This document shows positions 2,215-43,152 of a stretch of 64,000 nt of DNA, piece after piece. Below the pieces are notes generated by a model. It was not told the origin of the DNA, made no database searches, and saw only the letters and a program-made list of their open reading frames with translations. This stretch comes from Escherichia phage A73, in the sequence record OP778609, one strand, 5' to 3'. Positions within the stretch are counted from its first letter, which is position 1. Every line of letters begins with the position of its first letter. The translations under genes and the position numbers were made by a program.

Positions 2215-3390
2215 TCAAAACGGAATATCGTCGTCAAAATCCATATCATCTACAGACATATTTACATGTCCTTCAATATCAGGGGTAGGTGAATCTTCTG
2301 CTGACGGAGTTAACTGCGGTTCCGGCTCAGGTTTCTTTTCCTCTTGCTTAGGAGTTGAAGCACCGTTACGGATCTTATCTTCCAATTGACAGATGAATCG
2401 GAAATTCTCTTCAGTCTTAGCAATAAAGGTTTCGATATTGTCACGACCCCAACGGGCAGAAAGAATGCCACACTGGCCTAAACGAGCACCGAAAGAGTAA
2501 TCATCCATAGATTTAAACTCTTCACGCAGTTTTGCTTTGATCGAATCCATCGCTGCAAGAACTTGTTCTACGATCACACCCTGATTTGCAATAGTTTCAT
2601 CAGGGAACATTGCATCGGTAATAGATAGTGCATTACCTAAACGAATAGGTAGATCATCTTTACCTTTACCTGAACGTGATCCTGTTCCAGTACTTGCACC
2701 TTTTGGACCGTAAGCTTTAAAGCCTGTAACCGTACCATCATCTGAACGAACACCTGCAATACGACCACCTTCTGTAATCTGACCCGTCTGTTCATCAGTG
2801 AGGTTTACAGTAACTTCTGTGCCGTCTTCCAGCTTAACAACTACCTTATTGCCTTCGATAGATGTGATATCACCATAAATCTTCTTAGCTGCACCACCAG
2901 ACGGCTTTTGCTGCTGTTGGGAACCACTTGATTGCTGCTGTTGCTGACGAGGCTCACGAGCACCGGATGCGTCAGTAATCTTGATACGTGCTTTCTTACC
3001 TTCTGTAGAAGAACCTTGACTACCATCTTGTTTGGTATAGGTCTTGATAACAACAGGTAAACGAATTTTCATACCCTCTTTAAGATCGGTGTAACCACCT
3101 TCAGGATTTTTAATCTGGAACTGATTCTCATACTTCAGATTTTTAACTTCACCCTCACCAAAAGAAATCCATGCTTGATCTTCACCTTCTTTAAGAAGAA
3201 CCGCATAGCGGTGGGTATTGTTAATGCTTTTCTGCTGACCAGTATTCTTGTCTTTGAAGGTAGTCACTCGTGGGCTACCATCTTCATTAATACGTTTGAT
3301 CATGATACGTTCAATCGTACCTGCTGCAATGTTTACTGTGGTATCGGAAACAGCATCGTATACAGCATTGATAACTTTAACTTCAGACAT
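2215..3390 (-). CDS. ssDNA-binding (SSB-like) protein with E. coli SSB-type acidic C-terminal tail
   Basis: 391 aa; C-terminus MDFDDDIPF matches the E. coli SSB tip; Gln/Gly/Ser-rich linker; N-terminal domain not confidently recognised as a canonical OB fold. Confidence 0.65.
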   Translation of the reverse strand: MSEVKVINAVYDAVSDTTVNIAAGTIERIMIKRINEDGSPRVTTFKDKNTGQQKSINNTHRYAVLLKEGEDQAWISFGEGEVKNLKYENQFQIKNPEGGYTDLKEGMKIRLPVVIKTYTKQDGSQGSSTEGKKARIKITDASGAREPRQQQQQSSGSQQQQKPSGGAAKKIYGDITSIEGNKVVVKLEDGTEVTVNLTDEQTGQITEGGRIAGVRSDDGTVTGFKAYGPKGASTGTGSRSGKGKDDLPIRLGNALSITDAMFPDETIANQGVIVEQVLAAMDSIKAKLREEFKSMDDYSFGARLGQCGILSARWGRDNIETFIAKTEENFRFICQLEDKIRNGASTPKQEEKKPEPEPQLTPSAEDSPTPDIEGHVNMSVDDMDFDDDIPF

Positions 3391-6694: not shown

Positions 6695-7077
6695 TCGTAA
6701 TTGATCTCCACTTTAACAATTTTACCAGTTTTATCATTGAATACTTCAATGTCATAGTATTCAACAACGCCTTCATCATCAAAAGAACTTTTTTGTTTGC
6801 AAGGTGATACCCAAAAACCGTGGATTACTGCCTCCTCCAGTCCGTCGGTATGTGATACAACACTCAATGTTGGGTAAGGGACCATAATAGGTTTTACCTC
6901 ACCACAACCACACGTACAGCAAAATACTTCATCTTCTTCCAGTTGGTACAGTCGCTTTTCTGGAACAAAGGTCAGATGCGCCAAAGGATATTTAGAGACG
7001 ATGGCATTAATATAAGGTTTTCCTGCCAAGCTGTCAATAAATTCATTAAACTCTTTTCTATTTTTTGATAAGCTCAT
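6691..7077 (-). CDS. hypothetical Cys-rich protein
   Basis: 128 aa; CCTCGCGE cluster. Confidence 0.5.
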   Translation of the reverse strand: MSLSKNRKEFNEFIDSLAGKPYINAIVSKYPLAHLTFVPEKRLYQLEEDEVFCCTCGCGEVKPIMVPYPTLSVVSHTDGLEEAVIHGFWVSPCKQKSSFDDEGVVEYYDIEVFNDKTGKIVKVEINYE

Positions 7078-7310
7078 CGAGTACCTCCAAAAATATTTAA
7101 AGCTTTAGAATAATCAATGTGACCTGGAACAGTGTGGGCCTCTTGTACAAGGCATTGCCGACAAATACGTGACACAACTGTTGTCTTGATCTCTTCTGTA
7201 TCGTAGAAGCGAGACATTACCTTTGTAACTTGATTGCATTGAGTAATAACAAAATCGTGTTTACAACTTGGTTTGTTTTCTTCAGTTTCTTTCTTTTTAA
7301 AAGGCCACAT
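7074..7310 (-). CDS. putative zinc-ribbon protein
   Basis: 78 aa; four Cys arranged C..C....C..C. Confidence 0.45.
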   Translation of the reverse strand: MWPFKKKETEENKPSCKHDFVITQCNQVTKVMSRFYDTEEIKTTVVSRICRQCLVQEAHTVPGHIDYSKALNIFGGTR

Positions 7311-8605: not shown

Positions 8606-8983
8606 CTATACTCCAAATGTGGATTTGATTTCAGCAATAACCTCATGCACATTGTTTTCGTTTACTTCAAATGTGTAGGACGTTGGTTTAAGGAACGTCT
8701 GAGGTGAAACATTAACAAAGAATTCAAATTCATCATTAAAAATTTCAAAGTATTTTCCAGGTGTTGATTCTTGGCTTTTGAAAACAGTACCATCTTCCAT
8801 AGTAACAGAAGAAACAGATTTTTCACCAAGGGTGTATGTTTTTAGCTCGTCAACAACGAAACTGGGGCCGTGGCGACGGAGTATTTCAACCATAGTTCGG
8901 TTAGCTCCACAAATACCAGTACGATTAATAAATAACTCTTCACACCGAGGATTGAGAATATAAGTTTTTCCTACTTGCATCAT
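8606..8983 (-). CDS. hypothetical protein, tandem paralog family member 1
   Basis: 125 aa; starts M(M)QVGKTYILNP; RBS AAGGAG; similar to the next two genes. Confidence 0.55.
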   Translation of the reverse strand: MMQVGKTYILNPRCEELFINRTGICGANRTMVEILRRHGPSFVVDELKTYTLGEKSVSSVTMEDGTVFKSQESTPGKYFEIFNDEFEFFVNVSPQTFLKPTSYTFEVNENNVHEVIAEIKSTFGV

Positions 8984-8993
8984 TACAATCTCC

Positions 8994-9353
8994 TTATGCT
9001 AAGTTAAATGTGGATTTGATCAGGTCAATAACCTCTTGTGCGTTGCTCTCCGACACAGATACCTGAATAATTTTAAGGTCGCTGACCTCTTCAAAGTATT
9101 CGAACTCAGATTCACGAAGTTCAAAGTACATTGCCCCACAGCCCACACTGAATGAATCACACCCTACAGCACCATCTTCTGTTGTGATGTTATTAACATA
9201 CTCATCACCTTCGATCATGCTCATGTTGTTAACAATAAATCGTGGCCCGTGCTCATCCAGAAAAGAAACAATCTCGTGATTGTAACTTGGGTCAGCCTGA
9301 ATAAATTCTTCTACGAGTTTTGGATTAAGTTTATAAGTTTTTCCGACTTCCAT
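8994..9353 (-). CDS. hypothetical protein, tandem paralog family member 2
   Basis: 119 aa; MEVGKTYKLNP ... HGPRFIVNN ... SNAQEVIDLIKSTFNLA. Confidence 0.55.
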   Translation of the reverse strand: MEVGKTYKLNPKLVEEFIQADPSYNHEIVSFLDEHGPRFIVNNMSMIEGDEYVNNITTEDGAVGCDSFSVGCGAMYFELRESEFEYFEEVSDLKIIQVSVSESNAQEVIDLIKSTFNLA

Positions 9354-9364
9354 CTTTGTTCTCC

Positions 9365-9739
9365 TTACGCCAGGTTAAAGGTAGCTTTAATCAAATCTAA
9401 AGTTTCTTGTGCATTACTACGAGAGACGGCAACCTGAATAATAACAGGGTCTTCATCTTCCCCGACTTCTTTGAAGAAGGGAAATTCACTCTCTGCAAGT
9501 TCAAAGTATACACACTTGTTACCTTCGCAGTCGTGAAAAACGTCACTACCTAAAGTACCATCTTCAAATATGACATTGTTAACATATGCAACATTATCAT
9601 AGAAGTGGGTGGTGTTGACAACAAATTTAGGACCGTGCTTATAAATAAGGTCAACCAATTCTTGATTGTAGCTAGGGTCCATATTGATAAAAGCTTTTTC
9701 TAAGTCTTTATTAAGAATGTAAGTTTTTCCGATTTCCAT
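9365..9739 (-). CDS. hypothetical protein, tandem paralog family member 3
   Basis: Start moved to the internal Met (MEIGKTYILN) with RBS GAGGAG by paralog alignment; track ORF extends to 9826. Confidence 0.5.
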   Translation of the reverse strand: MEIGKTYILNKDLEKAFINMDPSYNQELVDLIYKHGPKFVVNTTHFYDNVAYVNNVIFEDGTLGSDVFHDCEGNKCVYFELAESEFPFFKEVGEDEDPVIIQVAVSRSNAQETLDLIKATFNLA

Positions 9740-9816
9740 CTTTGCTCTCCTCTTCAGTTGATGGATACATCTTAGTTGATATAGACATGTCTTGTCAATA
9801 ACTTTTTGCACATAAA

Positions 9817-9840
9817 AGAAAACCACCCTTCGGGGTGGTT
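9817..9840 (-). terminator. rho-independent terminator
   Basis: ACCACCCTTCGGGGTGGT hairpin with a T-run on the minus strand, after the polymerase 3' segment. Confidence 0.6.
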
Positions 9841-9847
9841 TAAATTA

Positions 9848-9994
9848 CTAGTGGCACGCCCCCCAGTTCATCCCTGTGAGGTATTCACCTGTTATGTGGA
9901 CAGGAGATTTCATCATTCGTGCTGCTTGCTCTACACAACGAACAACCATCTCTCCAACTGGACAATACATGATCGTGTAGATTCCATTCTCATC
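9848..9994 (-). CDS. DNA polymerase A, C-terminal segment (motif C Asp-Glu to C-terminal His)
   Basis: The last 48 aa of track ORF 9848-10198 (DENGIYTIMYCPVGEMVV...GMNWGACH) match the remembered T7 gp5/Pol I C-terminus including the terminal His; continues exon 1, which ends ...YYH. Confidence 0.6.
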   Translation of the reverse strand, partial: DENGIYTIMYCPVGEMVVRCVEQAARMMKSPVHITGEYLTGMNWGACH

Positions 9995-10919
9995 AGGATC
10001 ACACTTAAACTTCCCTTCTTTCACACAATGACCATCCAAGATCATTTTCTTAGCCAAGCAAGCTTCTACAAATTTCTTCGCGTCAGCTTCGTTGTCAAAG
10101 GTCCAGGTCTTCTTGAACTTGTGCGGTACTTCAAGCTGGTATTCATCCAAAAGTTTAACGAGGTCGTTACTCTCGCCCACATCATTACATGTTGCCATAC
10201 GTTTTCACATATGGATCGGACTATATCACCATCCTTTTCAGGATGCTCCCCATTTCGACGGCACTTGCTCGCCTACGCCTCTCGGCTAGTCTCTGAACGT
10301 TAGGACCATGTGTAGTCACAAGAGATGTGTGTCCAGTTTTTACGGATTTTTATGGACCTTACCACGTTGTAAGGATAACCCATATCCCGAATCTGTGCAC
10401 TTCCATAACCTTGCCCCAGGAAGTTGCAAATCTCTCTAACCTCTTCTTCGGTAACTATACTTCTGGCGTTATCAACCCCTGTTGCTGAACGACATTTATC
10501 AGCAAAGGTTTTCTTGATATTTCCACCACGAGTTGTCCATTGGAGGTTTGAATAGTGGTTATTCCTTTTGTCAGGCCACTTATGATCAACCTCCGGCAAA
10601 CCTTCAGGGTTTGGTACAAAACACTCTGCCACCAAAACGTGAACAGCCTTTGTAGTCGTCCTTTTGTTGAGATACAGACTTACAATAAGATACCCACGTC
10701 CATTATCAACTGCCGCCATTGGTTTCCCTCGACGACCTATAATGGTCCCGTCTTCATAAACCTTGTAACCGAAATAATCTTTATATTCCACATGATCCTC
10801 TTCGCTGCTGATTAACATAGTCTCATACTAACTCACACTTGAATTAATATCAACCTTAGTCTTCCAGCAATTAAAGGAGTTTTCGATGTGAGTTACCTCA
10901 CAAAGCCACAATGTTACTT
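9995..10919 (-). mobile_element. intervening sequence splitting the polymerase gene (intron-like or free-standing homing endonuclease cassette)
   Basis: About 925 nt inserted between the His and Asp codons of polymerase motif C; contains an HNH endonuclease ORF. Confidence 0.55.
10300..10818 (-). CDS. HNH homing endonuclease
   Basis: 172 aa; NUMOD4-like N-terminus (YKVYEDGTIIG) and HNH motif (VDHKWPDKRNNHYSNLQW). Confidence 0.8.
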   Translation of the reverse strand: MLISSEEDHVEYKDYFGYKVYEDGTIIGRRGKPMAAVDNGRGYLIVSLYLNKRTTTKAVHVLVAECFVPNPEGLPEVDHKWPDKRNNHYSNLQWTTRGGNIKKTFADKCRSATGVDNARSIVTEEEVREICNFLGQGYGSAQIRDMGYPYNVVRSIKIRKNWTHISCDYTWS

Positions 10920-13250
10920 ATGGTAATAGATAATACGTCTAACGCCTTCATCATACCAACCTTTCTTGACCAACTGCCAGTGCAGGAGGATACCCACCAA
11001 GTCAAACAGTGCAGCACCACCATTCTGCTGATAAGCATTAAGCAATGAGTGTTTGGAACGAGTGTAGATCTTACGTCCATCAAGACCGTAGATGAATCGC
11101 TTACCGTTAGCTTCCCAAAACTTCTCTAATGCTTCTTTACGACCTTTCAAGCCGATGTTGCTATCCCAGAATGCGTCGATTACTGCCTGGGCCTTCTCAA
11201 GAGTGATCCCCAGCATTGATGCAATCTTCGCTGCCTGTGCCCCGTACATAATTCCGTATGTCACACCTTTACCTTCACCACGAGAAACCTTCTTCCCTGC
11301 CGCTTTGGTATACGCTTCTGCGTTTCGGGAGTGAGCATCTCCAGATTCCATGATACGAAGATAAGCACCGCCATCGAAATCATAAGCGCCCCATGCTGCG
11401 ATCATACCTTCTAGGTTTGAACCGTCGATACCTACCTGATATTTACCCTCAGAGGCTCTGAATAGTTCACGCATCTCTTTACCGAGAAGAACTTTCTCAT
11501 CCGGCTTAGGTACGTTTGCTACGATCGTATGCTTACGACGACCTGTGTTAGTTATTCCACTATAACGGGCCGGAAGTTTACCGTCAACTCGTAGACGTGG
11601 ATGGTTAAGCCATCCGGTATCAACCTTCTCTTCTTTCAGCGGGTCAAGAACAGATCGTCGGTTACGTAAAGACAGCCATTTAACAATCTGTTTAGCCATT
11701 TCACCATCTACTCGCTCAAGGTTAGGGCAAAGACCCTGTTGATCCTTAAGTTGTGGAGATGTAGGTAATGCACGAGCTTTCTTACGGAAAAACTTGAACA
11801 TCTTTTCTTTATCTGACCACTGCTTAGGTGTGATCGCCAAGCTTTTCAGAATCAGATCACGATACTCCGTCTGATCCAAATCTTCAATGTATTGACGAAC
11901 AATCAGATCAACTTCACTATCGGGACGTTGTTTCTTGAACTGATCTTTAGTTGCATCCTTTGTACGCCAAATTGTTGGGACCCATCCTGCATCACGGATC
12001 AGGAACTTCTTAACGTCGTCCTGGTTACCAATACGCATCGGAATCATAATGTCCGGCATCTTTTGTTCTTTGATATCCATCAAAGCACGAGCCATATCTT
12101 CCGGCGGCAAAGGAACAAGCCCTTGCTGCTTAACGTTTTGTGCACGGATAAAATCACCCATTTTGGATTCGTCCTCTACACCGTGTTCAACACAATACTT
12201 GATCGCGGCAGCAGTAAGAGATCCGTCAGCCTTAAACGGCTTACTTGGTGCACCTTTAAATTCCAAGGCTTCCCAATTGATATTATAACCTAACTTCTCT
12301 AACCATTTCCAACCTGTACCGGAAAGAGATCCATCACCCTTGAAAGGTTTGGATGGGAATGTCGGTTGTGCTGATTTCGACATCTCTTTCTTCGGCAACT
12401 TAGGTTCAACCTCTAACTCAATGTCAGTCATCATCTTATCGATACGATCACGAAGCTTGAGTGCTTTTTCTTCATCAAATGAAACACCCTGAATTTCTTG
12501 CTCAATCATCAGGTAGTCAGTCAACATACCTCGACGCAGGGCATTCTTCCAGTTGATCATTTTATACTTCTTCTGATCTTTGTCTGTTTCATCCTTAAAC
12601 ATGAAGCGTTTATCATCCGGCATGGATTCACAGGAGATCTCTTTCATCAGAGCATCCCACACCATTTCGTTGATAATTACGTCTTCAATAATACGATCGC
12701 AATACTTCCAAAGTGGAAGGCCACGCCAATCTTCAATCGCCACTTTCTGGTTAGCTACTCGCATACCCCAAGCTTCAAGCCCGTGTGGCCCTACAGGCTT
12801 CATTTTACCTGTGACGGGGTTCTTTACCATCTCAGGACAACCGCGAGGCAGAGGGCGATCTGGATACAATGTACGGGACATTGAAAGTGTATCGAAGATG
12901 GTTACTTGTTTACCATTGATCGTCCCCATGCAACCAGGGTCTGCAAACATATCGTAAGTTGTTCCTAGCATCTTCTTAAACAACTGGAGGTCATAGCCGA
13001 AGATGTTGTGGATAGCAACTGCTTTAGGCTCGGTAACGAACCATTCGTTTAATTCTTCAAGGGTGCGGATCTTGAAGTTTTTACCTTTAGATTGGATAAA
13101 TTTAACAGCTTGATCGTAACCTTCTCGCTGTGGATCAAGAAAGATGTTCCAGTTATCTTTTTTGTACTCTTTAAACAAGATGCAGTGGATTAGATCAACT
13201 TCTGTCAACAGACCATTAGCTTCCGCATCTCCAATAAATAAGCCTTTCAT
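10920..13250 (-). CDS. DNA polymerase A (T7 gp5-like), N-terminal exo domain plus polymerase domain through the His of motif C
   Basis: 3'-5' exo motif GDAEANGL; motif A GIDGSNLEGM; motif B KGVTYGIMYGA; tail GLDGRKIYTRS...NAYQQNGGAALFDL; the ORF stops two codons after the motif C His. Confidence 0.85.
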
Positions 13251-13416: not shown

Positions 13417-13650
13417 TCAGTCTTCTATTACCTCAAATTCATCATTAAAAGCTACGATAGTTTCACCGTAGCCCATGTTTAATCGGGCAGTTGTAGGTTT
13501 GCCATTCCTAGATAGATAGTACACCCTCGCTTCGTAAATGTCACCAACTTTTACACCGTAAGCCTGTAGGTCTTTGTTATTGATATCTTTATTTTCAGCA
13601 TTGATTATTCGAACACTGCTGATCTCTGAGTATACAGAATTATCTTTCAT
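13417..13650 (-). CDS. hypothetical protein
   Basis: Start set at the internal Met with RBS GAGGA; track ORF 13417-13692. Confidence 0.4.
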   Translation of the reverse strand: MKDNSVYSEISSVRIINAENKDINNKDLQAYGVKVGDIYEARVYYLSRNGKPTTARLNMGYGETIVAFNDEFEVIED

Positions 13651-13940
13651 CAGTATTTTTCCTCTGGACGGAAAACTCCACGGCAAGCCCACATACTTGC
13701 TTCTTTGAGGCGATCTTTAGCCTTAGATAAGCAATCAGATGCAAAAAGCACGGAATCTAGATCCCCTTCGGGAATCGAAGAGTCATTAGCCAGTCGATTA
13801 TATTCCTCAATAATCTCGTCTTCTAATGCTTTTAAAATAAGACCTAAACGAATTTCAGCATCTTTAATGGCATTCACCTTACCGATTTTTTCATCGGTGT
13901 GTGGTTTGTAGCCCTTAATGTCATCAATAGCCATTACCAA
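13650..13940 (-). CDS. hypothetical protein
   Basis: 96-aa ORF. Confidence 0.45.
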   Translation of the reverse strand: MVMAIDDIKGYKPHTDEKIGKVNAIKDAEIRLGLILKALEDEIIEEYNRLANDSSIPEGDLDSVLFASDCLSKAKDRLKEASMWACRGVFRPEEKY

Positions 13941-19445: not shown

Positions 19446-21491
19446 TCAGAAAGGTGCGTCGTCGTCCCAATCATCCGGCTCTGTGTCCGGCACATCAGGA
19501 ATATCACCTGTGGATTCAACGATACTTTGTTGTTCCCACGTAGGTTCTTCTGAAGGTTGTTCCATTTCTTCCATAACCTTCTTGATCTCTTCCTCTTGCT
19601 CACGCAGGAAGTTATCATCCGGCTCAGGAATATCTTCCTCTTTAATATCTGAACGAGTGAGATCACTGTTTTGTTCAGACAGAGGTTGAATCTCTGCTGC
19701 TTTAGGCTTAAAGTCTGGAGAACGATGATCATCTTCTGGATGAGCGGCATACCACTCACGAAGAGTTTCATAAGGACTCTCTAAGAAGCCCTCTGGCGGT
19801 TCCAGATAATCACCCGTGTCAATGTCATAGAACACAGGGAATTTACCAGCACGACCGTGTTTACGGTCATCCAGAATAACAAAGTAAGAAGTGTTACGTT
19901 GTTTCATCGGGAGTTCTGGATCTTTGTTACGTTCAATACCCCACATGTAATAAGTGTTACGCATCATTGCACGGCTACCAGCAAACTGCGCTGACTGGAC
20001 TTGACCACCAAATTCATGAGGCTTACCAGATTCAGGCTTGTTAAGGTGACAGAAGCAATAATAGGTAAAGCCAAGCTCTTTTGCCAGTTTGGAGATCTCA
20101 TCAGAGAATCGTTCCAGTTCCTGGTTAGCTTCGGAAGCACTCATACCTTGCACAAGACGAGTGATTGGGTCAATAAAGATATCTTCACAACCTTCTACGA
20201 TCACTGCGTGACGGATAGCACCTTTCAGTTCATCCCATACTGCACGACCATAGTTGTTATAATAGATAACACTATCACCAACTTCATCAGTAGCCTTGAT
20301 CAGTTCTTCTTGCTTAAAGTAGCCACGTTGACCTTCAAATACTTCATTACCCCAAATGTCACGGAAAGTTCCATCTTCTTGAGGAATCATTACCTTTTCT
20401 GCGTTAACAAAGTCTTTATGATAACGCTTACCTGCGATCTTTTTACAGGTAATTTCGTTCTCTTCTTCAAACTTAAACACCGCAGCCTTTGACTTCTCAA
20501 TGCCTGTAATGTGTTCTACCATCTGGTTAAGAAGTTCACTCTTACCCATCTTGACCCCAGCCCCGATAAAGTAACCTTCACCTGGGCGACGGCCTAAAGT
20601 AAGCTTGGTCATGGTAGGCCAAGGGAATTTCTTACCAAGTTTAGGGATCTCATGGGCTTTTTCACGGAACTGTGAATAAGTCGAGAAACCATCCGGCACA
20701 TATTCCTTTGGCTTCATTGCAGCCCAAAACAACTGATCAGAAAGTCCTTTGTTATACATGTCGCAAGGGTCCATATCTTCTGGAATGTCCACGACTTTCA
20801 TTTGTGGAATTACAGAGTATACCGCTGCAACTGCATCTTTACCTTTCATGATCCCTTTGGCCTTCTCTGCCTCTGTTGCACGGTCAGCGTCGAAAGCTAC
20901 GATAATCTCTTCAAACTTACTCAGAAGCTTATAGTTATTCTTCTGTGATAAGTTTTGCACGGCATTGGATGTACCGTTAGAGATTGATACTACGGTGAAG
21001 TTAGGTTTACGGGTGGAACCATCCTTCGGTTTGTACTTCTCTGTCAATACCTGCCACAAGATTGCAGCATCATATTCACCTTCAGTGATAAAGATCATAC
21101 GTTTGGAAGACTTATTTGCACCTTCCAGCCCAAACATATCACAAGCCACAGATTGGAAACCAATAGTTGTAAAGTGACCTTTCTGTTGCTTAGGGATCGT
21201 AAGATCACGCTTCTTAAAACCTACAACCTTACCTTCCAATGTGTACGGAAAATAATGTGCTTCTGGAGTCATACCGTCTTTAGCTGACAACTTGGTACGA
21301 ATACCAAATCGTTTAGCTGTCTTTTCGTCGATACCACGCTCAGGGATACTTTTACACGGATAAGTCAATACGTCTTCAACTGTTTCTTCCACACGAGACA
21401 CACCACCACCATAATTACGTGCTACTGAAGCTTTAGGATTTTTATGTCCAAACTTATAACCGCCAAACAGACTTTCGCCAATAGTGCTCAT
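19446..21491 (-). CDS. T7 gp4-like primase-helicase (TOPRIM plus DnaB-like helicase) with acidic C-terminal tail
   Basis: 681 aa; TOPRIM ITEGEYDAAIL and FDADRAT; Walker A GAGVKMGKSE; CHLNKPESGKPHE; long acidic tail ending DDWDDDAPF; no N-terminal Cys4 zinc-binding domain. Confidence 0.85.
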   Translation of the reverse strand: MSTIGESLFGGYKFGHKNPKASVARNYGGGVSRVEETVEDVLTYPCKSIPERGIDEKTAKRFGIRTKLSAKDGMTPEAHYFPYTLEGKVVGFKKRDLTIPKQQKGHFTTIGFQSVACDMFGLEGANKSSKRMIFITEGEYDAAILWQVLTEKYKPKDGSTRKPNFTVVSISNGTSNAVQNLSQKNNYKLLSKFEEIIVAFDADRATEAEKAKGIMKGKDAVAAVYSVIPQMKVVDIPEDMDPCDMYNKGLSDQLFWAAMKPKEYVPDGFSTYSQFREKAHEIPKLGKKFPWPTMTKLTLGRRPGEGYFIGAGVKMGKSELLNQMVEHITGIEKSKAAVFKFEEENEITCKKIAGKRYHKDFVNAEKVMIPQEDGTFRDIWGNEVFEGQRGYFKQEELIKATDEVGDSVIYYNNYGRAVWDELKGAIRHAVIVEGCEDIFIDPITRLVQGMSASEANQELERFSDEISKLAKELGFTYYCFCHLNKPESGKPHEFGGQVQSAQFAGSRAMMRNTYYMWGIERNKDPELPMKQRNTSYFVILDDRKHGRAGKFPVFYDIDTGDYLEPPEGFLESPYETLREWYAAHPEDDHRSPDFKPKAAEIQPLSEQNSDLTRSDIKEEDIPEPDDNFLREQEEEIKKVMEEMEQPSEEPTWEQQSIVESTGDIPDVPDTEPDDWDDDAPF

Positions 21492-21649
21492 TACTGCTCC
21501 TTGATCATTGTCGCCAAATAAATAGTGTTACCGTTTGAATTAATGCCTGCTGTTACAGGACCCATCAATTTATAACCATAATCGTAATGCTTCAGTATAT
21601 ATTTTTGAAGAGACAACAAATTTGTATACGATAGGATCTTAATGTCCAT
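21491..21649 (-). CDS. hypothetical small protein
   Basis: 52-aa ORF absent from the track (<60 aa); RBS GGAGG; start and stop overlap the flanking genes. Confidence 0.35.
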   Translation of the reverse strand: MDIKILSYTNLLSLQKYILKHYDYGYKLMGPVTAGINSNGNTIYLATMIKEQ

Positions 21650-22824: not shown

Positions 22825-24183
22825 TTACTGGTTATTGAAAATACTCGGGAACTTCTCGTGATAGAAGTCTACAACATCCTGATCAACGATGATATCTTTT
22901 ACTCGCAGACGCTTCATCAGGCGAAGACCTTCTACGGATGTGGCACGAGATAGCATGACGTAGGCTTGCCCAGGTGTAAAAGTACCAAAACCAAGATCAA
23001 TATTTACTTTACCCAAGGTAAGACCCTGCGCTTTATGACCCGTGATTGCATAACCTAACTTAAATGGGTACTGGATATACTCACCGATAGATTTATCAAC
23101 AAGAACAGTTTTTTCAACCATCTTCTTGATCGTCTTTTTGGTTCCGTCCGGCATATCCACCTCTTCCTCTTCAAGCATCATCTTTTTCTCAGGTACTTGA
23201 GCAACGTTGTTCCATGTTGCAGGGCCTATTGGGACCATCTTGCCATCGATATCTACAACAACAAAGGTTTTTGCGATACGACGAACAATGCCGACTGTAC
23301 CGTTGACATAATCAGGCACTTTCTTCTTCTGATCATTGTCGTTAACAACAATCATTACTTTAAGACCTTCCTTGAGAAAGAGTTTTTCATTAACTGGACG
23401 TTCAACAAACTCACCAGTAATACGGGCATTAAATTCATGCTGTTCAGCATTAATCTTTGCGTACTCTTTGTTGTTAATCTCTTCTGCCAGCTTGTTTGTG
23501 GTAGTTAAAGTTACTGCCCCGTCAAGTGGACGACCAAAGCAACGCTGGTTAAAGAAGTTAACGGCATCAGGGATGTTTTTCCCGATACGAATATTGTTCA
23601 GGTGTTCTGCAAACACTGGATCACTTTGACGATGAACTTTAGGAAGATAAGCATAGGTCAGATTCAAAGATTCCCAAGTTTCACACCCAAAAGGAATTTC
23701 TTTCCCGTGCAGTTCACGGAACAAAGGAACTTCTTCTTTCTTAAGTACAGGCTTGATCTGGAAGCCGTCACCAAACATGATGATCTGGAGTCCACCAAAA
23801 GGCTTATCGGATTTACGATGGTGGCGAAGTTTCATATCGATTTCTTTCAGTTTGTCACTTCTAGTCATACCGATCTCATCGAACACGATACCATCGAGTG
23901 CATCAGATGCCATAAGCATAGCTGCCTTTTTAGATTTTGCTTTATAATCCTCGGAAGTTGTGACACCAAAGGTTAAACCAAACGCTTTATGGGTAGTAAC
24001 ACCACGGATGTTTAATGATGCCACGCCTGTTGGACCAACAAACAGAAAACTATCAGCAAAGAAGTCACGCAGTGCTGCGATCATCATACTTTTACCACTA
24101 CCACCAGGTCCGGTGATAAAAACGTTTTCCCCATTCATGATTGCTTGCATTGCCGCTTCGTTACCGATCACTGTCTTAGTCAT
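22825..24183 (-). CDS. Dda/Pif1/RecD-like SF1B DNA helicase
   Basis: 452 aa; Walker A GPGGSGKS, motif II VFDEIGM, GDGFQ, HKAQGLT, YVMLSRAT. Confidence 0.8.
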   Translation of the reverse strand: MTKTVIGNEAAMQAIMNGENVFITGPGGSGKSMMIAALRDFFADSFLFVGPTGVASLNIRGVTTHKAFGLTFGVTTSEDYKAKSKKAAMLMASDALDGIVFDEIGMTRSDKLKEIDMKLRHHRKSDKPFGGLQIIMFGDGFQIKPVLKKEEVPLFRELHGKEIPFGCETWESLNLTYAYLPKVHRQSDPVFAEHLNNIRIGKNIPDAVNFFNQRCFGRPLDGAVTLTTTNKLAEEINNKEYAKINAEQHEFNARITGEFVERPVNEKLFLKEGLKVMIVVNDNDQKKKVPDYVNGTVGIVRRIAKTFVVVDIDGKMVPIGPATWNNVAQVPEKKMMLEEEEVDMPDGTKKTIKKMVEKTVLVDKSIGEYIQYPFKLGYAITGHKAQGLTLGKVNIDLGFGTFTPGQAYVMLSRATSVEGLRLMKRLRVKDIIVDQDVVDFYHEKFPSIFNNQ

Positions 24184-30536: not shown

Positions 30537-30883
30537 TTTACCTCCATCATAAATACTTTAACTTTTCGTACCTCTAATCTTACTTTATTAGAGCCTTGAA
30601 GTCTATTTCTTTTTTCAATTGCGTCATTAATGTCGCCATAGAAGTAGTGATCCTTACCTATTGTTGGTATTCCATTGCCGCCTTGCATAGCCAGTGTATA
30701 CATTTCTTTTCCACCTTGCAACCCTTTTGATACTTTTTCTTCAAAATATTTATTGAATTGGGTTGGTGAAGTGTCAATTTCTACATCATCTTCCCATCCC
30801 ATAACTTTATCCCAAAAACGGTCAATCTTGTCAAGAACTTTGTTACTAATCTTTTTAATCTTCTTCAACATAATCTTCCCCAT
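30533..30883 (-). CDS. hypothetical protein
   Basis: 116-aa ORF. Confidence 0.45.
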   Translation of the reverse strand: MGKIMLKKIKKISNKVLDKIDRFWDKVMGWEDDVEIDTSPTQFNKYFEEKVSKGLQGGKEMYTLAMQGGNGIPTIGKDHYFYGDINDAIEKRNRLQGSNKVRLEVRKVKVFMMEVK

Positions 30884-31343
30884 TATTTATTTGGATACCG
30901 AAACGATTTTCATTAGTGGAAAAGAAACCATTTTCCATGCGGCGAATCTCTTCTTTCATCACTTCCTGCATCGTTAATTTAAGGATTTCTTTGTTTAATT
31001 TTGGCTTAACTTCACGGAGCTTGTCAAGAAGTTTTTCCATTTCTTCTTTTACTTTTTCTTCCTCATTTTCTACCTCTAATTGGTCCATTGCATCTTTACA
31101 AACACAGCAATGGCCCACAACTCTTAAAATATGATTTTGTATAGGTAATGCTTTTCTTCCACAATACCCACAAACAATAGACCCACCGGAGGACCGGGCA
31201 TCTATCGTCAATGTAGGCTTGGCCCCTTCTGCTTGAGAATGCCAAGTCTTTTTACCCTGGTAATCATACATAAAGAATTCGTAGGATCTTTCATCAACGT
31301 GGTCTTCGAGCATATGTAAAGTTCGTGTATTGAAATGTTTCAT
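30855..31343 (-). CDS. hypothetical zinc-finger protein
   Basis: 162 aa; CGYCGRK ... HCCVCK Cys cluster; Glu/Lys-rich coiled-coil-like C-terminus; first gene of the leftward block. Confidence 0.5.
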   Translation of the reverse strand: MKHFNTRTLHMLEDHVDERSYEFFMYDYQGKKTWHSQAEGAKPTLTIDARSSGGSIVCGYCGRKALPIQNHILRVVGHCCVCKDAMDQLEVENEEEKVKEEMEKLLDKLREVKPKLNKEILKLTMQEVMKEEIRRMENGFFSTNENRFGIQINNGEDYVEED

Positions 31344-31463: not shown

Positions 31464-32027
31464 ATGAGTCAAGATAAAGAGTTAGCCATTGCGATATCCG
31501 TAGCTGCTTCTGCCCATGTTGACCAAGTAGATAAAGGGGGGAATATCTATATTCTTCATCCTTTGCAGGTGATGCAAACATTGCAGCAAAAGGGAAGGGA
31601 AGATTTAATGGCAGCAGGAGTTTTGCATGATGTGATTGAAGATACTGAAATCACTATGGAACACCTCTTTAAAAAGGGGATTTCAGAAAGAACCTTAGTG
31701 ATTGTCGATGCAGTGACAAAGAAACGTAAGCAATCTTCATCTGATTACCTAGAGGGGATTTTAGAGAGTGAGGGTGCTTGTCATGTTAAGCTTGCGGATC
31801 TTAAACACAACTTAGATATTCTGCGAACTTGTAGCACCACAGAAAAAGACTTGCAACGGGTCAGGAAGTATGTAACAATGCACTTGTTGATTACGGAGAT
31901 GGTTGATTGGTATGAAAGTATCGGAAGGTATCTCGATTATTGTGATTCTTTTGCCTATTCTAGCTATCTCGACGAACGTAAAGAATTTGTTCAGAAACTT
32001 ATTAAAAAATGGAAGGAGTTTAAATGA
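31464..32027 (+). CDS. small alarmone hydrolase (RelA/SpoT-type HD-domain (p)ppGpp hydrolase-like)
   Basis: 187 aa; HD-domain signature NIYILHPLQV ... AAGVLHDVIEDT ... IVDAVTKK ... HVKLADLKHN. Confidence 0.75.
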   Translation: MSQDKELAIAISVAASAHVDQVDKGGNIYILHPLQVMQTLQQKGREDLMAAGVLHDVIEDTEITMEHLFKKGISERTLVIVDAVTKKRKQSSSDYLEGILESEGACHVKLADLKHNLDILRTCSTTEKDLQRVRKYVTMHLLITEMVDWYESIGRYLDYCDSFAYSSYLDERKEFVQKLIKKWKEFK

Positions 32028-32627: not shown

Positions 32628-33857
32628 ATGCAAGCAACTTATCAACGTATGGACCAAACCATGTTCAAAAAACGTATCAGTATCCGTGATATGGAACCAC
32701 TGATCCGTCTGGGCGCTTCCATCGGTAAGACCGTGTTCTTTTTTGGTGGTGCAGGTCTTGGTAAGTCTGAAAAAGTAAAACAGATCGCGGACTCTATGTT
32801 CCCACATCGTGTAGGAAATAACCTGTGTGATGTTCGTCTGTCCGATAAAGAGCCGCAAGATATTGCAGGTATTCCGATTCCGATCTCTTATCCAGATCCA
32901 AAGACTGGTGAAGAAGTTACCCGTACTGTATATGCTGTTCCAAACTTCTGGCCTACCGATCCTGATTGGGAAGGTATCGTGTTCCTGGATGAACTGCCGA
33001 ACGCACCATTGGGTACTCAGCACTCTGCATATCAGGTTATTCTTGATCACGTTGCAGGTGAACATAAGTTCCCGAAAGGTACTGTGTTTGTAGGTGCAGG
33101 TAACCGTGATACTGATGGCGCTGGGACAACATCTATGCCTGGTCCACTGGTTAACCGTATGATCATTGCAGAGGTCGATTATAATCTGGATGTGTGGATC
33201 GAAGATTATGCGATTCCGTTCCGTCTGCATCCGAACATTATTGGTTTCTTGAAGCAGTTTCCAGAGCATTTCTATACTGGTGACGTAGAAAACCGAAGCA
33301 CTCCGGTTTATTCATCTCCTCGCCAATGGAAAACCGCGTCTGACATTCTGTATAAGTACGATGCTGGCGAGATTAATGAATTTATCGCAGAGGTTGCCCT
33401 GGCAGGTACAGTTGGTGAAGGCTTGGAAGTGCAGATCCTTGCTTACCATTTACGTGCTAAAGAACTTCCTCCGATTGAAGATATCTTTAGTGGTGCAGTT
33501 AAAGAGCATAAACTTGATCGCAGCAAGAACGACCTTGTTTACGTACTGGCACAAACTGGTCTGCGTCGTATGGAAGATGAAGTTATGGATAACGATATGA
33601 CTGATGATAAGTTCCTTGAACGTGCAGGTAACTTCCTTACGTTCATGTACAATAACTATTATGCAAACAACAAGGATACGATGATTGCTTTGATCTTGGG
33701 CGTGTTCCGTGGTCCAAACGATAAGCCATCTATCCTGACTGTTAACCCGAAACGTCAGAAAATGATTCCGCTCATGCGTAAAAGTTGCCCGACTGTTTCT
33801 GCCGCAGTTATGGAATACATGACTCGCTATGGTCAACTGATTAAAGAATTCGAATAA
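32628..33857 (+). CDS. MoxR/CbbQ-like AAA+ ATPase (AAA_5 type)
   Basis: 409 aa; Walker A GGAGLGKSE, Walker B VFLDELPNAP; strong E. coli-like optimal codon usage (CGT, CTG, CCG, GGT). Confidence 0.75.
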   Translation: MQATYQRMDQTMFKKRISIRDMEPLIRLGASIGKTVFFFGGAGLGKSEKVKQIADSMFPHRVGNNLCDVRLSDKEPQDIAGIPIPISYPDPKTGEEVTRTVYAVPNFWPTDPDWEGIVFLDELPNAPLGTQHSAYQVILDHVAGEHKFPKGTVFVGAGNRDTDGAGTTSMPGPLVNRMIIAEVDYNLDVWIEDYAIPFRLHPNIIGFLKQFPEHFYTGDVENRSTPVYSSPRQWKTASDILYKYDAGEINEFIAEVALAGTVGEGLEVQILAYHLRAKELPPIEDIFSGAVKEHKLDRSKNDLVYVLAQTGLRRMEDEVMDNDMTDDKFLERAGNFLTFMYNNYYANNKDTMIALILGVFRGPNDKPSILTVNPKRQKMIPLMRKSCPTVSAAVMEYMTRYGQLIKEFE

Positions 33858-33937: not shown

Positions 33938-35476
33938 ATGGCAAAACTTACGATTGAAGAAAGCAATATGATTGAAATGCAAGTCTCTGAAGCAGAGCGT
34001 ATCATCGAGGCTGCTAGTCTACAACTGATGCGGTTTAAGCCCTTCTACGGGGTAATGCTTTCGTCTATGCCTGTTAAAAAGGCGACGGAGTGGTGTAGTA
34101 CAATGGCGACTGATGGACGTAACCTGTATTACCATCCAGAGTTCGTTGCAGGTATGACAGAAGAACGTAAAAAATTGGTACTTGATCGACTTTCCAAAAC
34201 TGAGAAAGATCCTAAAAAGCTGAAAGAGTCCACTGAGTTTATTAATGTCTTCTATCGTCGCAAGACTGCCCGTGAGCTTGCTCTTATTCTTGAGCACGAA
34301 TGCGATCATGTGATCTCTGATCATGCCTCTCGCGGTAAAGGATTTAATCATGAACTTTACAACATTGCAGCGGATCATCGTATCAATACAACGGCGGTTC
34401 TTATTCACCAAAAGGGGGATGAGTTAGGTAAGGCATGGTTCCCTGCCGGAGAAAGAACAGTATTCGATAAGAATGCAGAATTTGGATTTATGGCCTGGTC
34501 TTACTGTGATTTCCGATTCAAAGATATGTATACTGAGCAGATCTATGAAATCCTGAATAAAGAGCAAGATGATAAAGAAAAATCCAAAGGGAAAGGTTCT
34601 GGTTCTGGAAGTGAAGAGGGTGATGGTGAAGAAGGTGGTCAAGGTCGTAAAGGTGTTGATCAGCACATGGATCAGAATGGTGATCCAGAAGATTCAGAAG
34701 GTGATGGTATCGAAGATGCACTAGGAATCGACCGTAAAGCGAAGCCTAAGCAAACAGCAGAGGAACGCCAGTATAACGATGGGGTTATGCGTCGAGCCAT
34801 TGAGAATGCCGTACAGGCAGCAGGAAGCGGTGCACCGGAAGATGCTCGTCGTTTTGTAGAAGCGGCGGGTAAACCAAAGATTAATTATCTTCGTTTGTTG
34901 CGTAAAACTATTGAACGTCTGTTCAAAGATGATGTATCATATCGTCGTTTGTCACGCCGTAGTCACTCGTTAACTCGGACTCTTCGTGGCTCGGGTTACT
35001 TATCTGGACGACAGACGATTGGTTTACCCTCAAAGAATAAACAGAAGACTATTCGTGCAGGTGTCTTCTTCGACGTATCGGGATCATTTAACGATGATCT
35101 ATTGCGTCCAACAATGCGTGAGATTCGTGGATTATGTAATCTTTACGACGAATTTGAGGTCACGATGGCTTGCTGGTCAACAAAGGTTGGTAACATCGAG
35201 ACGTATACGAAAAGAAACGTTGGTGAGATTGCTGACTATAAGATCAAAACGACATTTGGTACGGATGTTTCTTGTGTGTTTGAAGCATTAGATGAAATGA
35301 AAGACCCTATGGATCAGATCATCATCTATACTGACGGTTACTTTGCTGATGTATCCCAAAAGAAAGATTGGGCCAAAAAGTATGGTAAGAATGTTCTTTG
35401 GATCATCCTGGGTCGTGGGTCTTCGTTCACCCCACCTTTCGGTAAGGCAATTGATTTTGACAAGTATCTTAAATAA
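33938..35476 (+). CDS. vWA-domain protein with N-terminal HExxH putative metallopeptidase domain
   Basis: 512 aa; HECDH motif; acidic/Gly-rich linker; C-terminal vWA with MIDAS-like DVSGSF. Confidence 0.7.
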   Translation: MAKLTIEESNMIEMQVSEAERIIEAASLQLMRFKPFYGVMLSSMPVKKATEWCSTMATDGRNLYYHPEFVAGMTEERKKLVLDRLSKTEKDPKKLKESTEFINVFYRRKTARELALILEHECDHVISDHASRGKGFNHELYNIAADHRINTTAVLIHQKGDELGKAWFPAGERTVFDKNAEFGFMAWSYCDFRFKDMYTEQIYEILNKEQDDKEKSKGKGSGSGSEEGDGEEGGQGRKGVDQHMDQNGDPEDSEGDGIEDALGIDRKAKPKQTAEERQYNDGVMRRAIENAVQAAGSGAPEDARRFVEAAGKPKINYLRLLRKTIERLFKDDVSYRRLSRRSHSLTRTLRGSGYLSGRQTIGLPSKNKQKTIRAGVFFDVSGSFNDDLLRPTMREIRGLCNLYDEFEVTMACWSTKVGNIETYTKRNVGEIADYKIKTTFGTDVSCVFEALDEMKDPMDQIIIYTDGYFADVSQKKDWAKKYGKNVLWIILGRGSSFTPPFGKAIDFDKYLK

Positions 35477-41983: not shown

Positions 41984-42142
41984 ATGACTAGCCAAAACAC
42001 TAACATTGAAAAAATCAACATTACTAAAGAGCGTAAAGCATGGAATGAAACATTAAATCTCAAAGGTAAGAAGCTAAATAAAACTAAACGCGATCGCAGT
42101 ACAAAGCGGGCCTTTTGTGAATTTACAGCGGATCAAGAATGA
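41984..42142 (+). CDS. hypothetical small basic protein
   Basis: 52-aa ORF absent from the track; preceded by GGGGCAACTTTGCCCC hairpin and RBS CAGGAG. Confidence 0.4.
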   Translation: MTSQNTNIEKINITKERKAWNETLNLKGKKLNKTKRDRSTKRAFCEFTADQE

Positions 42143-43008: not shown

Positions 43009-43152
43009 ATGAAAACTTGTCAGTGTGGTAAAAAGTCTATTACTGGTCTGCGTCGCGGTGTTGCTTTATGCCAGTATCATTACAATAGTCAAGTATGGGG
43101 TAAAACGTGGGCTGACCAGGTTGAAGCAGCAAATAAAGCAAAAAGTAATTGA
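43009..43152 (+). CDS. small zinc-ribbon-like protein
   Basis: 47-aa ORF absent from the track; CQCG ... CQYH; own promoter, hairpin and RBS. Confidence 0.45.
   Translation: MKTCQCGKKSITGLRRGVALCQYHYNSQVWGKTWADQVEAANKAKSN

Follow-up and report, generated by a model that had tools for sequence, protein, structure and literature searches.

Architecture of the primase-helicase gene

The window analysed here is a stretch of 64,000 nucleotides from Escherichia phage A73 (sequence record OP778609), a 140-kb myovirus. One of its minus-strand genes encodes a 681-aa protein with the following layout:

19446..21491, minus strand: whole gene (from the ORF list) for a gp4-type primase-helicase without a zinc-binding domain (ZBD); stop codon TGA at 19446-19448
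21497..21502, minus strand: Shine-Dalgarno sequence AAGGAG, 5 nt before the ATG of the gene
21387..21491, minus strand: N-terminal tail, residues 1-35 (MSTIGESLFGGYKFGHKNPKA...), rich in Gly, Tyr and Lys, without Cys, with a conserved G-Y-x-K-G motif
20688..21338, minus strand: RNA-polymerase (primase) domain of TOPRIM fold, residues 52-268, aligning to T7 gp4 from 84 to about 262
20607..20687, minus strand: linker between primase and helicase, residues 269-295, placed by alignment to the T7 linker
19782..20606, minus strand: SF4 (DnaB/gp4-type) helicase domain, residues 296-570; Pfam DnaB_C, E 1e-7, above the cut-off
19449..19781, minus strand: acidic, low-complexity C-terminal tail, residues 571-681, ending DDWDDDAPF

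A phmmer search of PDB sequences identified T7 gp4 as the best match (5ikn, E=2e-20; 6n7i, E=6e-20), with residues 51-529 aligning to residues 83-512 of the T7 protein. Identity to T7 gp4 is only ~23%, and the primase (TOPRIM) and helicase regions correspond block for block in the alignment. The profile phrog_239 (“DNA primase/helicase”) matches with an E value of 5e-157 over its positions 101-658 of 801. The AF2 model has a mean pLDDT of 85.6, and Foldseek placed T7 gp4 first (E ~1e-29 to 1e-30) and Twinkle second; the top 12 hits are T7 gp4 chains only (E 7e-30 to 3e-25), so that the overall fold is gp4-like. The original prediction of a gp4-like protein is thereby borne out. We assign to this gene the role of replicative helicase-primase in a phage of the Vequintavirinae (Septuagintavirus-type); in its product, a TOPRIM (RNA-polymerase) domain of DnaG/T7 type is fused, as in T7 gp4, to an SF4 hexameric helicase.

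Among 82 homologues, 34 of the 217 columns of the primase domain and five of the 27 columns of the linker are invariant, and the primase domain is almost as well conserved as the helicase (majority-residue frequency 0.70 compared with 0.76). As in gp4-type proteins, the C-terminal tail is acidic and closes on an aromatic residue: the terminal Phe is present in 76 of the 82 homologues and in ~100/120 of a larger set. In the model, pLDDT falls below 50 at residues 647-679 of this tail.

The ATG at 21491 overlaps the stop codon of an upstream 53-aa ORF (TAATG). An in-frame stop lies 12 codons upstream, with no start codon in between, and no Cys-rich ORF was found in the other two upstream frames. 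An N-terminal extension or a frameshift into a Cys-rich upstream frame, which we also considered, is ruled out by stops in all frames and by the lack of a Cys motif. The start codon of the gene is secure.

A conserved tail in place of the zinc-binding domain

The only Cys among residues 1-50 is C46, and C-x2-C pairs are absent. The Cys4 ZBD (primase motif I) is thus missing, and no zinc ribbon is present in the AF2 model of the protein. This agrees with the original prediction, for which an upstream in-frame start adding a Cys4 domain was also looked for and none found. ZBD-less proteins of the family gave no significant match to a gp4 ZBD profile within the set searched (best E ~1).

Where T7 gp4 has its ZBD and linker, the phage protein carries the N-terminal tail of 35 residues. 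It is predicted to be mostly disordered (pLDDT 42-63): in the model, residues 1-11 are disordered, residues 12-30 are of low confidence, and a hairpin spans residues 22-35. The tail is nevertheless conserved among the 82 homologues (G11 in 67, Y12 in 74, G15 and A21 in 55 each). A similar tail is found in the rV5 protein, and many deeper ZBD-less relatives lack it and have only 13-30 aa ahead of the domain. The protein had been thought to begin at roughly the position of T7 gp4B, the short form of gp4. This has to be corrected: M64 of T7, the gp4B start, aligns with T37, so the protein begins 36 residues ahead of the equivalent point with a conserved tail of its own.

In principle, a genuine ZBD could be hidden by a misassigned start codon, by a frameshift or by faulty assembly, a chance that we regard as negligible. 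The Shine-Dalgarno sequence is strong, no start codon lies between the ATG and the stop 12 codons upstream, the upstream reading frames contain no Cys-rich sequence, and the same architecture recurs in 120 independent homologue clusters and in the deposited genomes of rV5, ICP1, LTH01 and CR9. As judged from the sequence, such an artefact is refuted.

Catalytic residues of both enzymes are invariant

The following catalytic motifs were located by alignment to T7 gp4:

21069..21083, minus strand: TOPRIM motif E137-G-E-Y-D141 (T7 E157...D161); E137, G138, E139 and D141 invariant
20883..20891, minus strand: metal-binding D201-A-D203 (T7 D207, D209); invariant
20769..20771, minus strand: D241, equivalent of T7 D237; invariant in 82 homologues (two alignments differ by 2 residues and give D239 or D241)
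20538-20561, minus strand: Walker A AGVKMGKS of the helicase domain

In the primase domain, K93/R95/D96 correspond to T7 K122/R124/D125. Six residues, E137, D141, D201, D203, D241 and K93 (T7 E157, D161, D207, D209, D237 and K122), are invariant in all 82 homologues and kept in essentially all of 80 ZBD-less cluster representatives (see below), and for E137 and D141 this extends to essentially all 115 representatives. The TOPRIM metal ligands and the K122 site of gp4-type primases are thus present by alignment. The Pfam models Toprim and Toprim_2 match the protein only below their cut-offs. In the helicase domain, K317, E342, D441, H482 and R543 (T7 K318, E343, D424, H465 and R522) are likewise invariant, and the protein has the Walker A Lys, catalytic Glu, Walker B Asp, H3 His and arginine finger of an SF4 helicase. 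A helicase-only protein of the metazoan Twinkle type would have lost both zinc finger and Mg-binding residues; here the zinc finger is absent and the Mg-binding residues are all invariant. The invariance of the primase catalytic residues argues against a simple “gp4B-like, helicase-only” reading.

The ZBD-less architecture defines a large phage clade

All of the 120 closest homologues lack the ZBD, as do 80 of the 115 alignable representatives of clusters formed at 50% identity. A single split of the unrooted tree places 79/81 ZBD-less and 0/34 ZBD-bearing sequences on one side. The ZBD-less architecture therefore defines a large phage clade and is not a peculiarity of one gene. Neither this clade-wide distribution nor the invariance of all primase catalytic residues had been noticed in the original prediction. 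A tblastn search with the primase half retrieved 705 phage records, among them the model phages ICP1 and rV5, many therapy candidates and also some zinc-finger-bearing relatives. Members of the clade comprise rV5 (gp230), ICP1, rV5-like phages and relatives from Certrevirus and Septuagintavirus. The rV5, ICP1, Certrevirus and Septuagintavirus proteins carry the same insertion signature (RDWTxxKE..HFTT) as the 681-aa protein and, like it, have a PF-ending tail, whereas the primase halves of the rV5 and ICP1 proteins are only ~26-33% identical to it. Papers that name the rV5- and ICP1-type proteins helicase-primase by analogy do not mention the missing ZBD, and our full-text literature searches found neither a description of ZBD-less phage gp4 homologues nor a biochemical assay of any member of the clade.

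Two insertions distinguish the primase domain of this clade from that of its ZBD-bearing relatives:

21189..21203, minus strand: insertion 1, L97-T-I-P-K101, just after K93/R95/D96
20838..20879, minus strand: insertion 2, residues 205-218 (ATEAEKAKGIMKGK), directly after the DxD motif

The segment 96-107 has a median length of 12 in ZBD-less and 7 in ZBD-bearing representatives, and K101 occurs in 71/80 of the former compared with 0/33 of the latter. For the segment 203-241, the corresponding median lengths are 40 and 28, and E209, K216 and G217 of insertion 2 are invariant among the 82 homologues. Judging solely from their neighbours in the sequence, both insertions would flank the primase active site.

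No second primase or detached primase-type zinc ribbon is detectable

Among the called ORFs that lie at positions 58-52974 of the window and reach 45 aa or more, Pfam scans (run on concatenated sequences) revealed no second primase; they returned PolA, PIF1 helicase, HNH, methylase and others, and zf-CHC2 was not found among the window ORFs. For the relative LTH01, Pfam analysis of 10 large ORFs of unknown function in its remaining genome gave only a ligase, NT5C, ClpP and an RlaP-type nucleotidyltransferase, and no primase. The published whole-genome annotations of Septuagintavirus and rV5 contain no other primase, and none is found within ±10 kb of the gene in two other lineages.

A detached zinc ribbon was sought with a gp4-type ZBD profile, which recovered 13 ZBD proteins not used in its training (E 4e-19 to 7e-6). 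Applied to all six frames, it gave no hit in the window (lowest E 0.63) or in the complete genome of the close relative LTH01 (lowest E 0.39), and the surroundings of the gene in rV5, ICP1 and two metagenomic lineages were negative as well. Three ORFs had been proposed as possible sources of a primase zinc ribbon (7074-7310, 30855-31343 and 43009-43152). All score negative bits against the profile and show no match to zf-CHC2 or any other primase-type Pfam family even at E<=10; two match only PHROGs of unknown function, and 43009-43152 matches none. The original interpretation thus holds for a gp4-like, ZBD-less protein without an upstream start, whereas its three zinc-ribbon candidates gain no support from profile or Pfam similarity.

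It would still be conceivable that the primase is split and that a separate small zinc-ribbon protein stands in for the ZBD by acting in trans on the TOPRIM domain. The zinc finger of plant Twinkle directs template recognition, and the zinc-finger and RNA-polymerase domains of the Arabidopsis protein, purified apart, reconstitute a primase in trans (PMC10557236). In group 2 jumbo phages, a DnaG Toprim protein is accompanied by a primase-type zinc ribbon encoded on its own; like the protein described here, this Toprim protein is a TOPRIM primase polypeptide without a zinc ribbon (PMC7824862). In our window, ORF 30855-31343 would suit such a role: it contains a ribbon of the type C-x2-C-x18-C-x2-C (CGYC ... 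CCVC), opens the leftward replication-gene block, and is conserved in 104 phage records from several genera that also carry ZBD-less helicases (a word-indexed search returned one homologue). Yet neither ICP1 nor rV5-type Vequintaviruses, both of which have ZBD-less primase-helicases, appear among the 40 listed of its 104 matches, no Vibrio phage is among the matches, and no zinc-ribbon ORF adjoins the primase-helicase gene in rV5 or ICP1. The ribbon of the jumbo phages is recognisable as a separate primase-type gene, whereas none was detected in the window or in LTH01, and the controlled profile search was equally negative in rV5, ICP1 and the two metagenomic lineages. Short zinc ribbons diverge fast, so missing similarity is weak evidence and a very divergent ribbon could escape; even so, we consider a split primase quite improbable.

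Replication partners encoded in the same genome

The window contains further replication genes:

9848..13250, minus strand: family A (T7-like) DNA polymerase gene with a group I intron; Pfam DNA_pol_A
2215..3390, minus strand: 391-aa SSB-like protein, ending MDFDDDIPF
22825..24183, minus strand: PIF1/RecD-type accessory helicase; Pfam PIF1, E 2e-21

Inside the polymerase gene, Intron_gpI matches at 10196-10929 with 39.7 bits; Rfam applied to the whole window at the gathering threshold gave no match. The family A polymerase is likely the partner of the helicase tail. The C-terminus MDFDDDIPF of the SSB-like protein is the exact tip of E. coli SSB; ~80/97 homologues of the phage protein end in D[DE]DIPF, and its model shows a weak match to OB folds of bacterial SSB. 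PolA and this SSB-like protein with its acidic tip represent the T7-like replisome partners in the window, and the replisome set of the phage comprises its own PolA, SSB, ligase and an annotated ribonuclease.

Comparison with known gp4-type proteins

The 63-kDa form of T7 gp4 (gp4A) likewise consists of an RNA-polymerase/TOPRIM domain, a linker, an SF4 helicase and a Phe-ending acidic tail in the same order, shares the catalytic residues of both enzymes, and belongs to a comparable T7-like module with a family A polymerase. Unlike gp4A, the 681-aa protein has no Cys4 ZBD, contains the two insertions and carries the Gly-Tyr-Lys N-terminal tail. Its acidic C-terminal tail measures ~110 residues; that of T7 gp4 (ending ...DTDF) is short, and there 17 C-terminal residues are involved in contacting T7 DNA polymerase (PMC2241861). 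The 56-kDa form gp4B also combines an RNA-polymerase domain and a helicase without a ZBD. It arises from an internal start, is made alongside gp4A and does not perform template-directed primer synthesis, and the isolated T7 RNA-polymerase domain (RPD) shows no detectable template binding (PMC2910064). In contrast to gp4B, the ZBD-less form is the only one here, with no full-length partner in the genome. Metazoan mitochondrial Twinkle, the second-best structural match, is another gp4 homologue without a zinc finger. In the human protein, which has no primase activity, zinc finger and Mg-binding residues are both gone (PMC2241861); the latter are invariant in the clade of the 681-aa protein. Beyond the T7-like phages, activity as a gp4-type primase-helicase is found in the plant organellar protein AtTwinkle, which, unlike the phage protein, has kept its zinc finger. 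For the apicoplast protein PREX lacking a zinc finger, we found nothing usable in the literature.

How primers may be made

The zinc finger of bacterial and T7-type primases serves to choose the site on the template, to aid the formation of dinucleotides and to pass the primer on to the polymerase. To our knowledge, it is regarded as essential in all of these enzymes, and we know of no DnaG/gp4-type primase studied so far that manages template-directed synthesis without it, which speaks against zinc-free priming. So do the behaviour of the T7 56-kDa form and of its RPD (PMC2910064) and the dependence of template recognition on the zinc finger in plant Twinkle (PMC10557236). Two lysines point the same way: the insertion leaves the equivalent of T7 K128 ambiguous, and conservation is absent at T7 K137. 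Moreover, conserved acidic residues could serve a TOPRIM function other than priming.

The main rival explanation, which we consider rather unlikely, assigns the protein a helicase-only role in the style of T7 gp4B or metazoan Twinkle, with primers coming from elsewhere. The primase-like domain would then serve in DNA binding, ring loading or polymerase coupling, and host DnaG, host RNA polymerase transcripts or recombination intermediates would provide the primers. T7 gp4B indeed has full helicase activity without template-directed priming (PMC2910064), the N-terminal domain of Twinkle aids ssDNA binding and helicase activity without priming (PMC2241861), and T7 primase-domain residues are reportedly required for loading the hexamer onto DNA (PMC9198812). 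DnaG could perhaps be recruited via SSB-type tips, namely those of the SSB-like protein (...MDFDDDIPF) and of the helicase tail (...DDDAPF); the SSB-like protein favours this route by its tip, shared as D[DE]DIPF by most of its homologues, and by its weak resemblance to bacterial OB folds. DnaG and further replication proteins of the host are known to bind the SSB tip. Gp4-type helicases, however, lack the N-terminal domain of DnaB, the docking site of DnaG, which counts against the host-DnaG route, and the Phe-ending acidic tails of T7 bind the phage polymerase, so that acidic tips need not indicate host proteins. A helicase-only role is also at odds with a phage that otherwise supplies its own replisome and with TOPRIM metal ligands and a K122 equivalent that are invariant across at least 80 clusters below 50% identity: Twinkle lost exactly those ligands when it lost priming (PMC2241861).

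Because the primase catalytic residues are all invariant, priming by the 681-aa protein alone is our leading hypothesis, and we lean towards a primase-helicase that primes without a zinc finger. In this model, the hexamer would unwind DNA ahead of the phage family A polymerase, as in T7, and its acidic tail would bind this polymerase. The primase domain would be catalytically active and synthesise the lagging-strand primers itself. Template and primer may be held by clade-specific elements together with ssDNA from the attached helicase, in replacement of the zinc finger; candidate elements are the LTxPK loop by the K122 equivalent, the 12-residue basic insertion after the DxD motif and, in this subfamily, the Gly-Tyr-Lys N-terminal tail. 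The template sequence preference would probably differ from, or be weaker than, that of T7. More tentatively, we propose that the ZBD-less clade as a whole could represent genuine TOPRIM primases whose primer initiation needs no zinc-binding module, the insertions (and here the tail) holding template and primer.

Implications

A large phage clade thus combines a fully conserved primase active site with the lack of a zinc finger and of any other detectable primase. Should host primase, recombination or transcription prime replication instead, this would bear on host range, on how the satellite PLE exploits the ICP1 replisome and on the design of phage therapy. If zinc-independent priming is true, it would constitute new enzymology for TOPRIM primases and a second design for a DnaG-type primase; hundreds of sequenced phages would have it, and the view of the zinc finger as indispensable for this type of enzyme would be overturned.

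The primase-helicase gene and its start codon

The gene comes from a Septuagintavirus-type phage (Vequintavirinae), and the coordinates originally reported for it delimit exactly one ORF:

19446..21491, minus strand, primase-helicase ORF, 681 aa

Its DNA is 95-98% identical to that of Escherichia phages A5-4, LTH01, UPEC06, A7_1 and W70 and ~80% identical to that of Certrevirus-like Cronobacter, Pectobacterium and Enterobacter phages. An AAGGAG sequence (21497-21502) precedes the ATG at 21491, which shares TAATG with the stop codon of a 53-aa upstream ORF. We looked for an in-frame start further 5′ that would add a Cys4 domain, the finding named in the original prediction as speaking against it, but none is present before a stop 12 codons upstream, and the remaining upstream frames contain no peptide rich in Cys. 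The assignment of the start is secure.

The protein matches T7 gp4 but lacks its zinc-binding domain

Among PDB sequences, T7 gp4 was the top phmmer match (E 2e-20 to 6e-20), with residues 51-529 aligned to T7 residues 83-512. An AlphaFold2 model built with 82 homologues as input (mean pLDDT 85.6) gave the same picture: when the PDB was searched with Foldseek, its best 12 matches were T7 gp4 chains without exception (E 7e-30 to 3e-25), and Twinkle and DnaB came after them. Residues 1-50 contain nothing corresponding to the T7 zinc-binding domain (ZBD) and only a single cysteine, C46; the model has disorder at residues 1-11, low confidence at 12-30, a small hairpin at 22-35 and no ribbon. Taken together, these results indicate that the block-for-block match to T7 gp4 and the absence of the Cys4 ribbon are both real. 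The comparison with gp4B, the short T7 form, holds in part: the protein lacks a ZBD as gp4B does, but T7 M64, where gp4B starts, aligns with T37, so that it begins 36 residues earlier. Every gp4 family feature that we tested is present, except the ZBD.

The TOPRIM metal ligands and their neighbours correspond one-to-one with T7 (E137=E157, D141=D161, D201=D207, D203=D209), D241 corresponds to T7 D237 (D239 does so instead in one alignment), and K93 to T7 K122. All six residues are invariant in the 82 homologues, as are helicase residues K317, E342, D441, H482 and R543 (T7 K318, E343, D424, H465 and R522). Judged by sequence, the primase domain is conserved nearly as much as the helicase domain, with a majority-residue frequency of 0.70 versus 0.76 and 34 of 217 versus 74 of 275 columns invariant, and the protein is a gp4-type helicase with an intact primase active site. 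Human Twinkle is the opposite case: its zinc finger and its Mg-binding residues are both gone, and it does not act as a primase (PMC2241861). Since the A73 protein keeps its metal ligands, it does not fit the Twinkle type.

Both ends of the protein carry conserved tails. Phe is the last residue of the acidic C-terminal tail of ~110 residues, just as it is of T7 gp4 (DDWDDDAPF versus DTDF), and 76 of 82 homologues have this terminal Phe. At the N-terminus, a Gly-Tyr-Lys tail (G11 in 67 and Y12 in 74 of 82) is still recognisable in phage rV5. It is missing from many deeper ZBD-less relatives and therefore cannot be a general substitute for the ZBD.

The ZBD is missing from a whole clade

The 120 best homologues from a 5.8-billion-protein collection (53-90% identity) all lack a Cys motif ahead of EGExD. 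An exhaustive HMMER search with residues 1-285 against 1.84 billion cluster representatives returned 655 matches (E≤0.001), and after local re-scoring the best 64 of the listed representatives were all without an N-terminal extension. Among 115 alignable representatives, 80 are ZBD-less (≤55 residues and ≤2 Cys before the domain), 33 carry a typical Cys4 ZBD and two are ambiguous; essentially every representative keeps the primase catalytic positions, with or without the ZBD. In an unrooted neighbour-joining tree of the shared columns, with insertions taken out, a single split places 79 of 81 ZBD-less but none of 34 ZBD-bearing proteins on one side; the two outliers are short fragments. In these alignments, the missing ZBD is thus the property of a clade and not of the A73 gene alone. 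The rV5 and ICP1 primase-helicases fall inside this clade, and a LUZ24-like podovirus protein retains the ZBD. Two insertions, both adjoining the catalytic centre, are diagnostic of the ZBD-less clade (residue numbers):

L97-T-I-P-K101, insertion 1, 5 residues, right after K93/R95/D96 (= T7 K122/R124/D125)
205-218, insertion 2, ~12 residues, ATEAEKAKGIMKGK, directly after the DxD motif

K101 is found in 71 of 80 ZBD-less and in none of 33 ZBD-bearing representatives.

Search for a detached zinc finger or a second primase

Pfam scans of called ORFs with 45 aa or more (window 58-52974) identified a family A polymerase, a PIF1 helicase, an HNH endonuclease, a methylase and others, but no DnaG, zf-CHC2, archaeo-eukaryotic primase or PrimPol domain. 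Likewise, among ten large ORFs without annotation in the remainder of the LTH01 genome, Pfam identified a ligase, a nucleotidase, ClpP and an RlaP-type nucleotidyltransferase but no primase, and no separate primase is entered in the published Septuagintavirus functional tables or the rV5 genome paper.

A 41-position ZBD profile, built from 34 ZBD-bearing relatives, recovered 13 ZBD proteins outside its training set (E 4e-19 to 7e-6). Run against six-frame ORFs, it found nothing in the window (best E 0.63), in the complete LTH01 genome (best E 0.39) or near the gene in rV5, ICP1 and two metagenomic lineages. The ORFs originally suggested as separate zinc ribbons (7074-7310, 30855-31343 and 43009-43152) find no support as primase ribbons: all three score negative bits against this profile, and none has a primase-type Pfam match even at E≤10. 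Two match only PHROGs of unknown function, and 43009-43152 matches none. One does encode a ribbon:

30855-31343, minus strand, 162-aa protein (phrog_13698), Cys4 ribbon CGYC, 18 residues, CCVC

After the ribbon come a long helix rich in Lys and Glu and an acidic end. This gene opens a leftward block and is conserved across 104 phage records, from Septuagintavirus and from Certrevirus-like, phAPEC8-like and Pseudomonas PAK_P/KPP10-like phages. These 104 include no Vibrio phage, and the 40 listed include neither ICP1 nor an rV5-type Vequintavirus.

Replication genes and introns

The primase-helicase shares a T7-like module with a family A polymerase and an SSB-like protein:

2215-3390, minus strand, SSB-like protein, 391 aa, phrog_4477 (unknown function), ending ...DDMDFDDDIPF
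9848-13250, minus strand, split family A DNA polymerase gene (ORFs 10914-13250 and 9848-10198)
10196-10929, minus strand, group I intron (Rfam Intron_gpI, full model, 39.7 bits, E 2.7e-8; below the gathering score of 50)
10300-10818, HNH endonuclease ORF between the polymerase ORFs, inside the intron

The last nine residues of the SSB-like protein match those of the E. coli SSB C-terminal tip, and D[DE]DIPF ends about 80 of 97 homologues. Its AlphaFold2 model (pLDDT 78) shows beta-rich N-terminal domains weakly matching bacterial SSB OB folds; on this basis it is probably a phage SSB with a host-type interaction tip.

The Intron_gpI match fits the gap between the polymerase ORFs, for which the LTH01 annotation has two 'DNA polymerase' CDSs. 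In A5-4, UPEC06, A7_1 and W70 the primase-helicase gene, too, is split, by insertions that resemble one another. In A5-4 (locus L002, 3001-5795), 749 bp inserted between nt 935 and 936 split the Walker A codons (between GAG and VKMGKS; window about 20556/20557) and contain an ORF for an HNH homing endonuclease as well as a group I intron match that stays below threshold (24.6 bits, E 6e-4); in GenBank, such exons are entered as two proteins. The window copy is intron-free. Homologues of 830-1000 aa also exist, one (P0096) with an intein homing-endonuclease domain (PF05203) and another (P0121) with a ~290-aa insertion within the primase domain. Inteins as well as introns appear to target this gene frequently.

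Other genes of the window are as follows:

8606-9826, minus strand, three tandem paralogous ORFs (8606-8983, 8994-9353, 9365-9826), Pfam FRD2 (bacteriophage protein of unknown function; E 1e-55 concatenated, three matched stretches)
13650-13940, minus strand, small ORF with Acb2/Tad1 hairpin domain (Pfam, E 1e-14); the family comprises anti-CBASS/anti-Thoeris nucleotide sponges
31464-32027, plus strand, HD_4 (RelA/SpoT-like) domain protein
32628-33857, plus strand, 409-aa ORF without a match in the Pfam scan, probably the MoxR entry for A5-4 in Table S5 of the Septuagintavirus paper
33938-35476, plus strand, following the latter, DUF2201 metallopeptidase/VWA protein
41984-42142, plus strand, small T7 gp1.1-like ORF (Pfam Phage_1_1, E 1e-6)

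Nowhere in the window (1-64000) does an Rfam family attain its gathering score, and no tRNA gene was found; the LTH01 tRNA cluster lies outside the region covered.

How the lagging strand may be primed

We lean slightly towards a primase-helicase that primes the lagging strand without a zinc finger. The main objection comes from T7, where gp4B is fully active as a helicase but does not carry out template-directed primer synthesis, and template binding by the isolated RNA-polymerase domain is undetectable (PMC2910064). The protein could accordingly act as a helicase only, with primers coming from host DnaG, transcripts or recombination. The SSB-like protein offers a lead in this direction, since DnaG and other host replication proteins are known to dock on the SSB tip. 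Nevertheless, DnaG docks on the DnaB N-terminal domain, which gp4-type helicases lack, and the invariance of the catalytic residues also speaks against a helicase-only role, which we regard as rather unlikely.

A zinc ribbon supplied in trans has precedents in plant Twinkle, whose zinc-finger and RNA-polymerase domains function in trans when purified apart (PMC10557236), and in the standalone primase-type ribbon of some jumbo phages (PMC7824862). The ZBD profile, Pfam and PHROG searches lend it no positive support in A73; as they found no standalone primase-type ribbon, the protein does not fit the jumbo-phage split type, and we consider such a split primase improbable. That an artefact hides a true ZBD is hardly conceivable given the sequence and 120 independent homologue clusters.

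For priming without a zinc finger, we propose that the hexamer would unwind DNA while its acidic tail docks the phage polymerase, and that the primase domain would make the lagging-strand primers. The attached helicase would present the template, which the two clade-specific insertions may hold, and in the A73 subfamily the Gly-Tyr-Lys tail may assist.

Family members are usually annotated as 'DNA primase/helicase' (phrog_239; many GenBank records), and the rV5 and ICP1 papers report a T7-like helicase-primase, with the missing zinc finger going unmentioned. No account of phage gp4 homologues that lack the ZBD but keep intact catalytic sites turned up in the full-text literature searched, whose coverage is incomplete. 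The A73 gene is an ordinary member of its clade, and the point of interest is the architecture of the clade.
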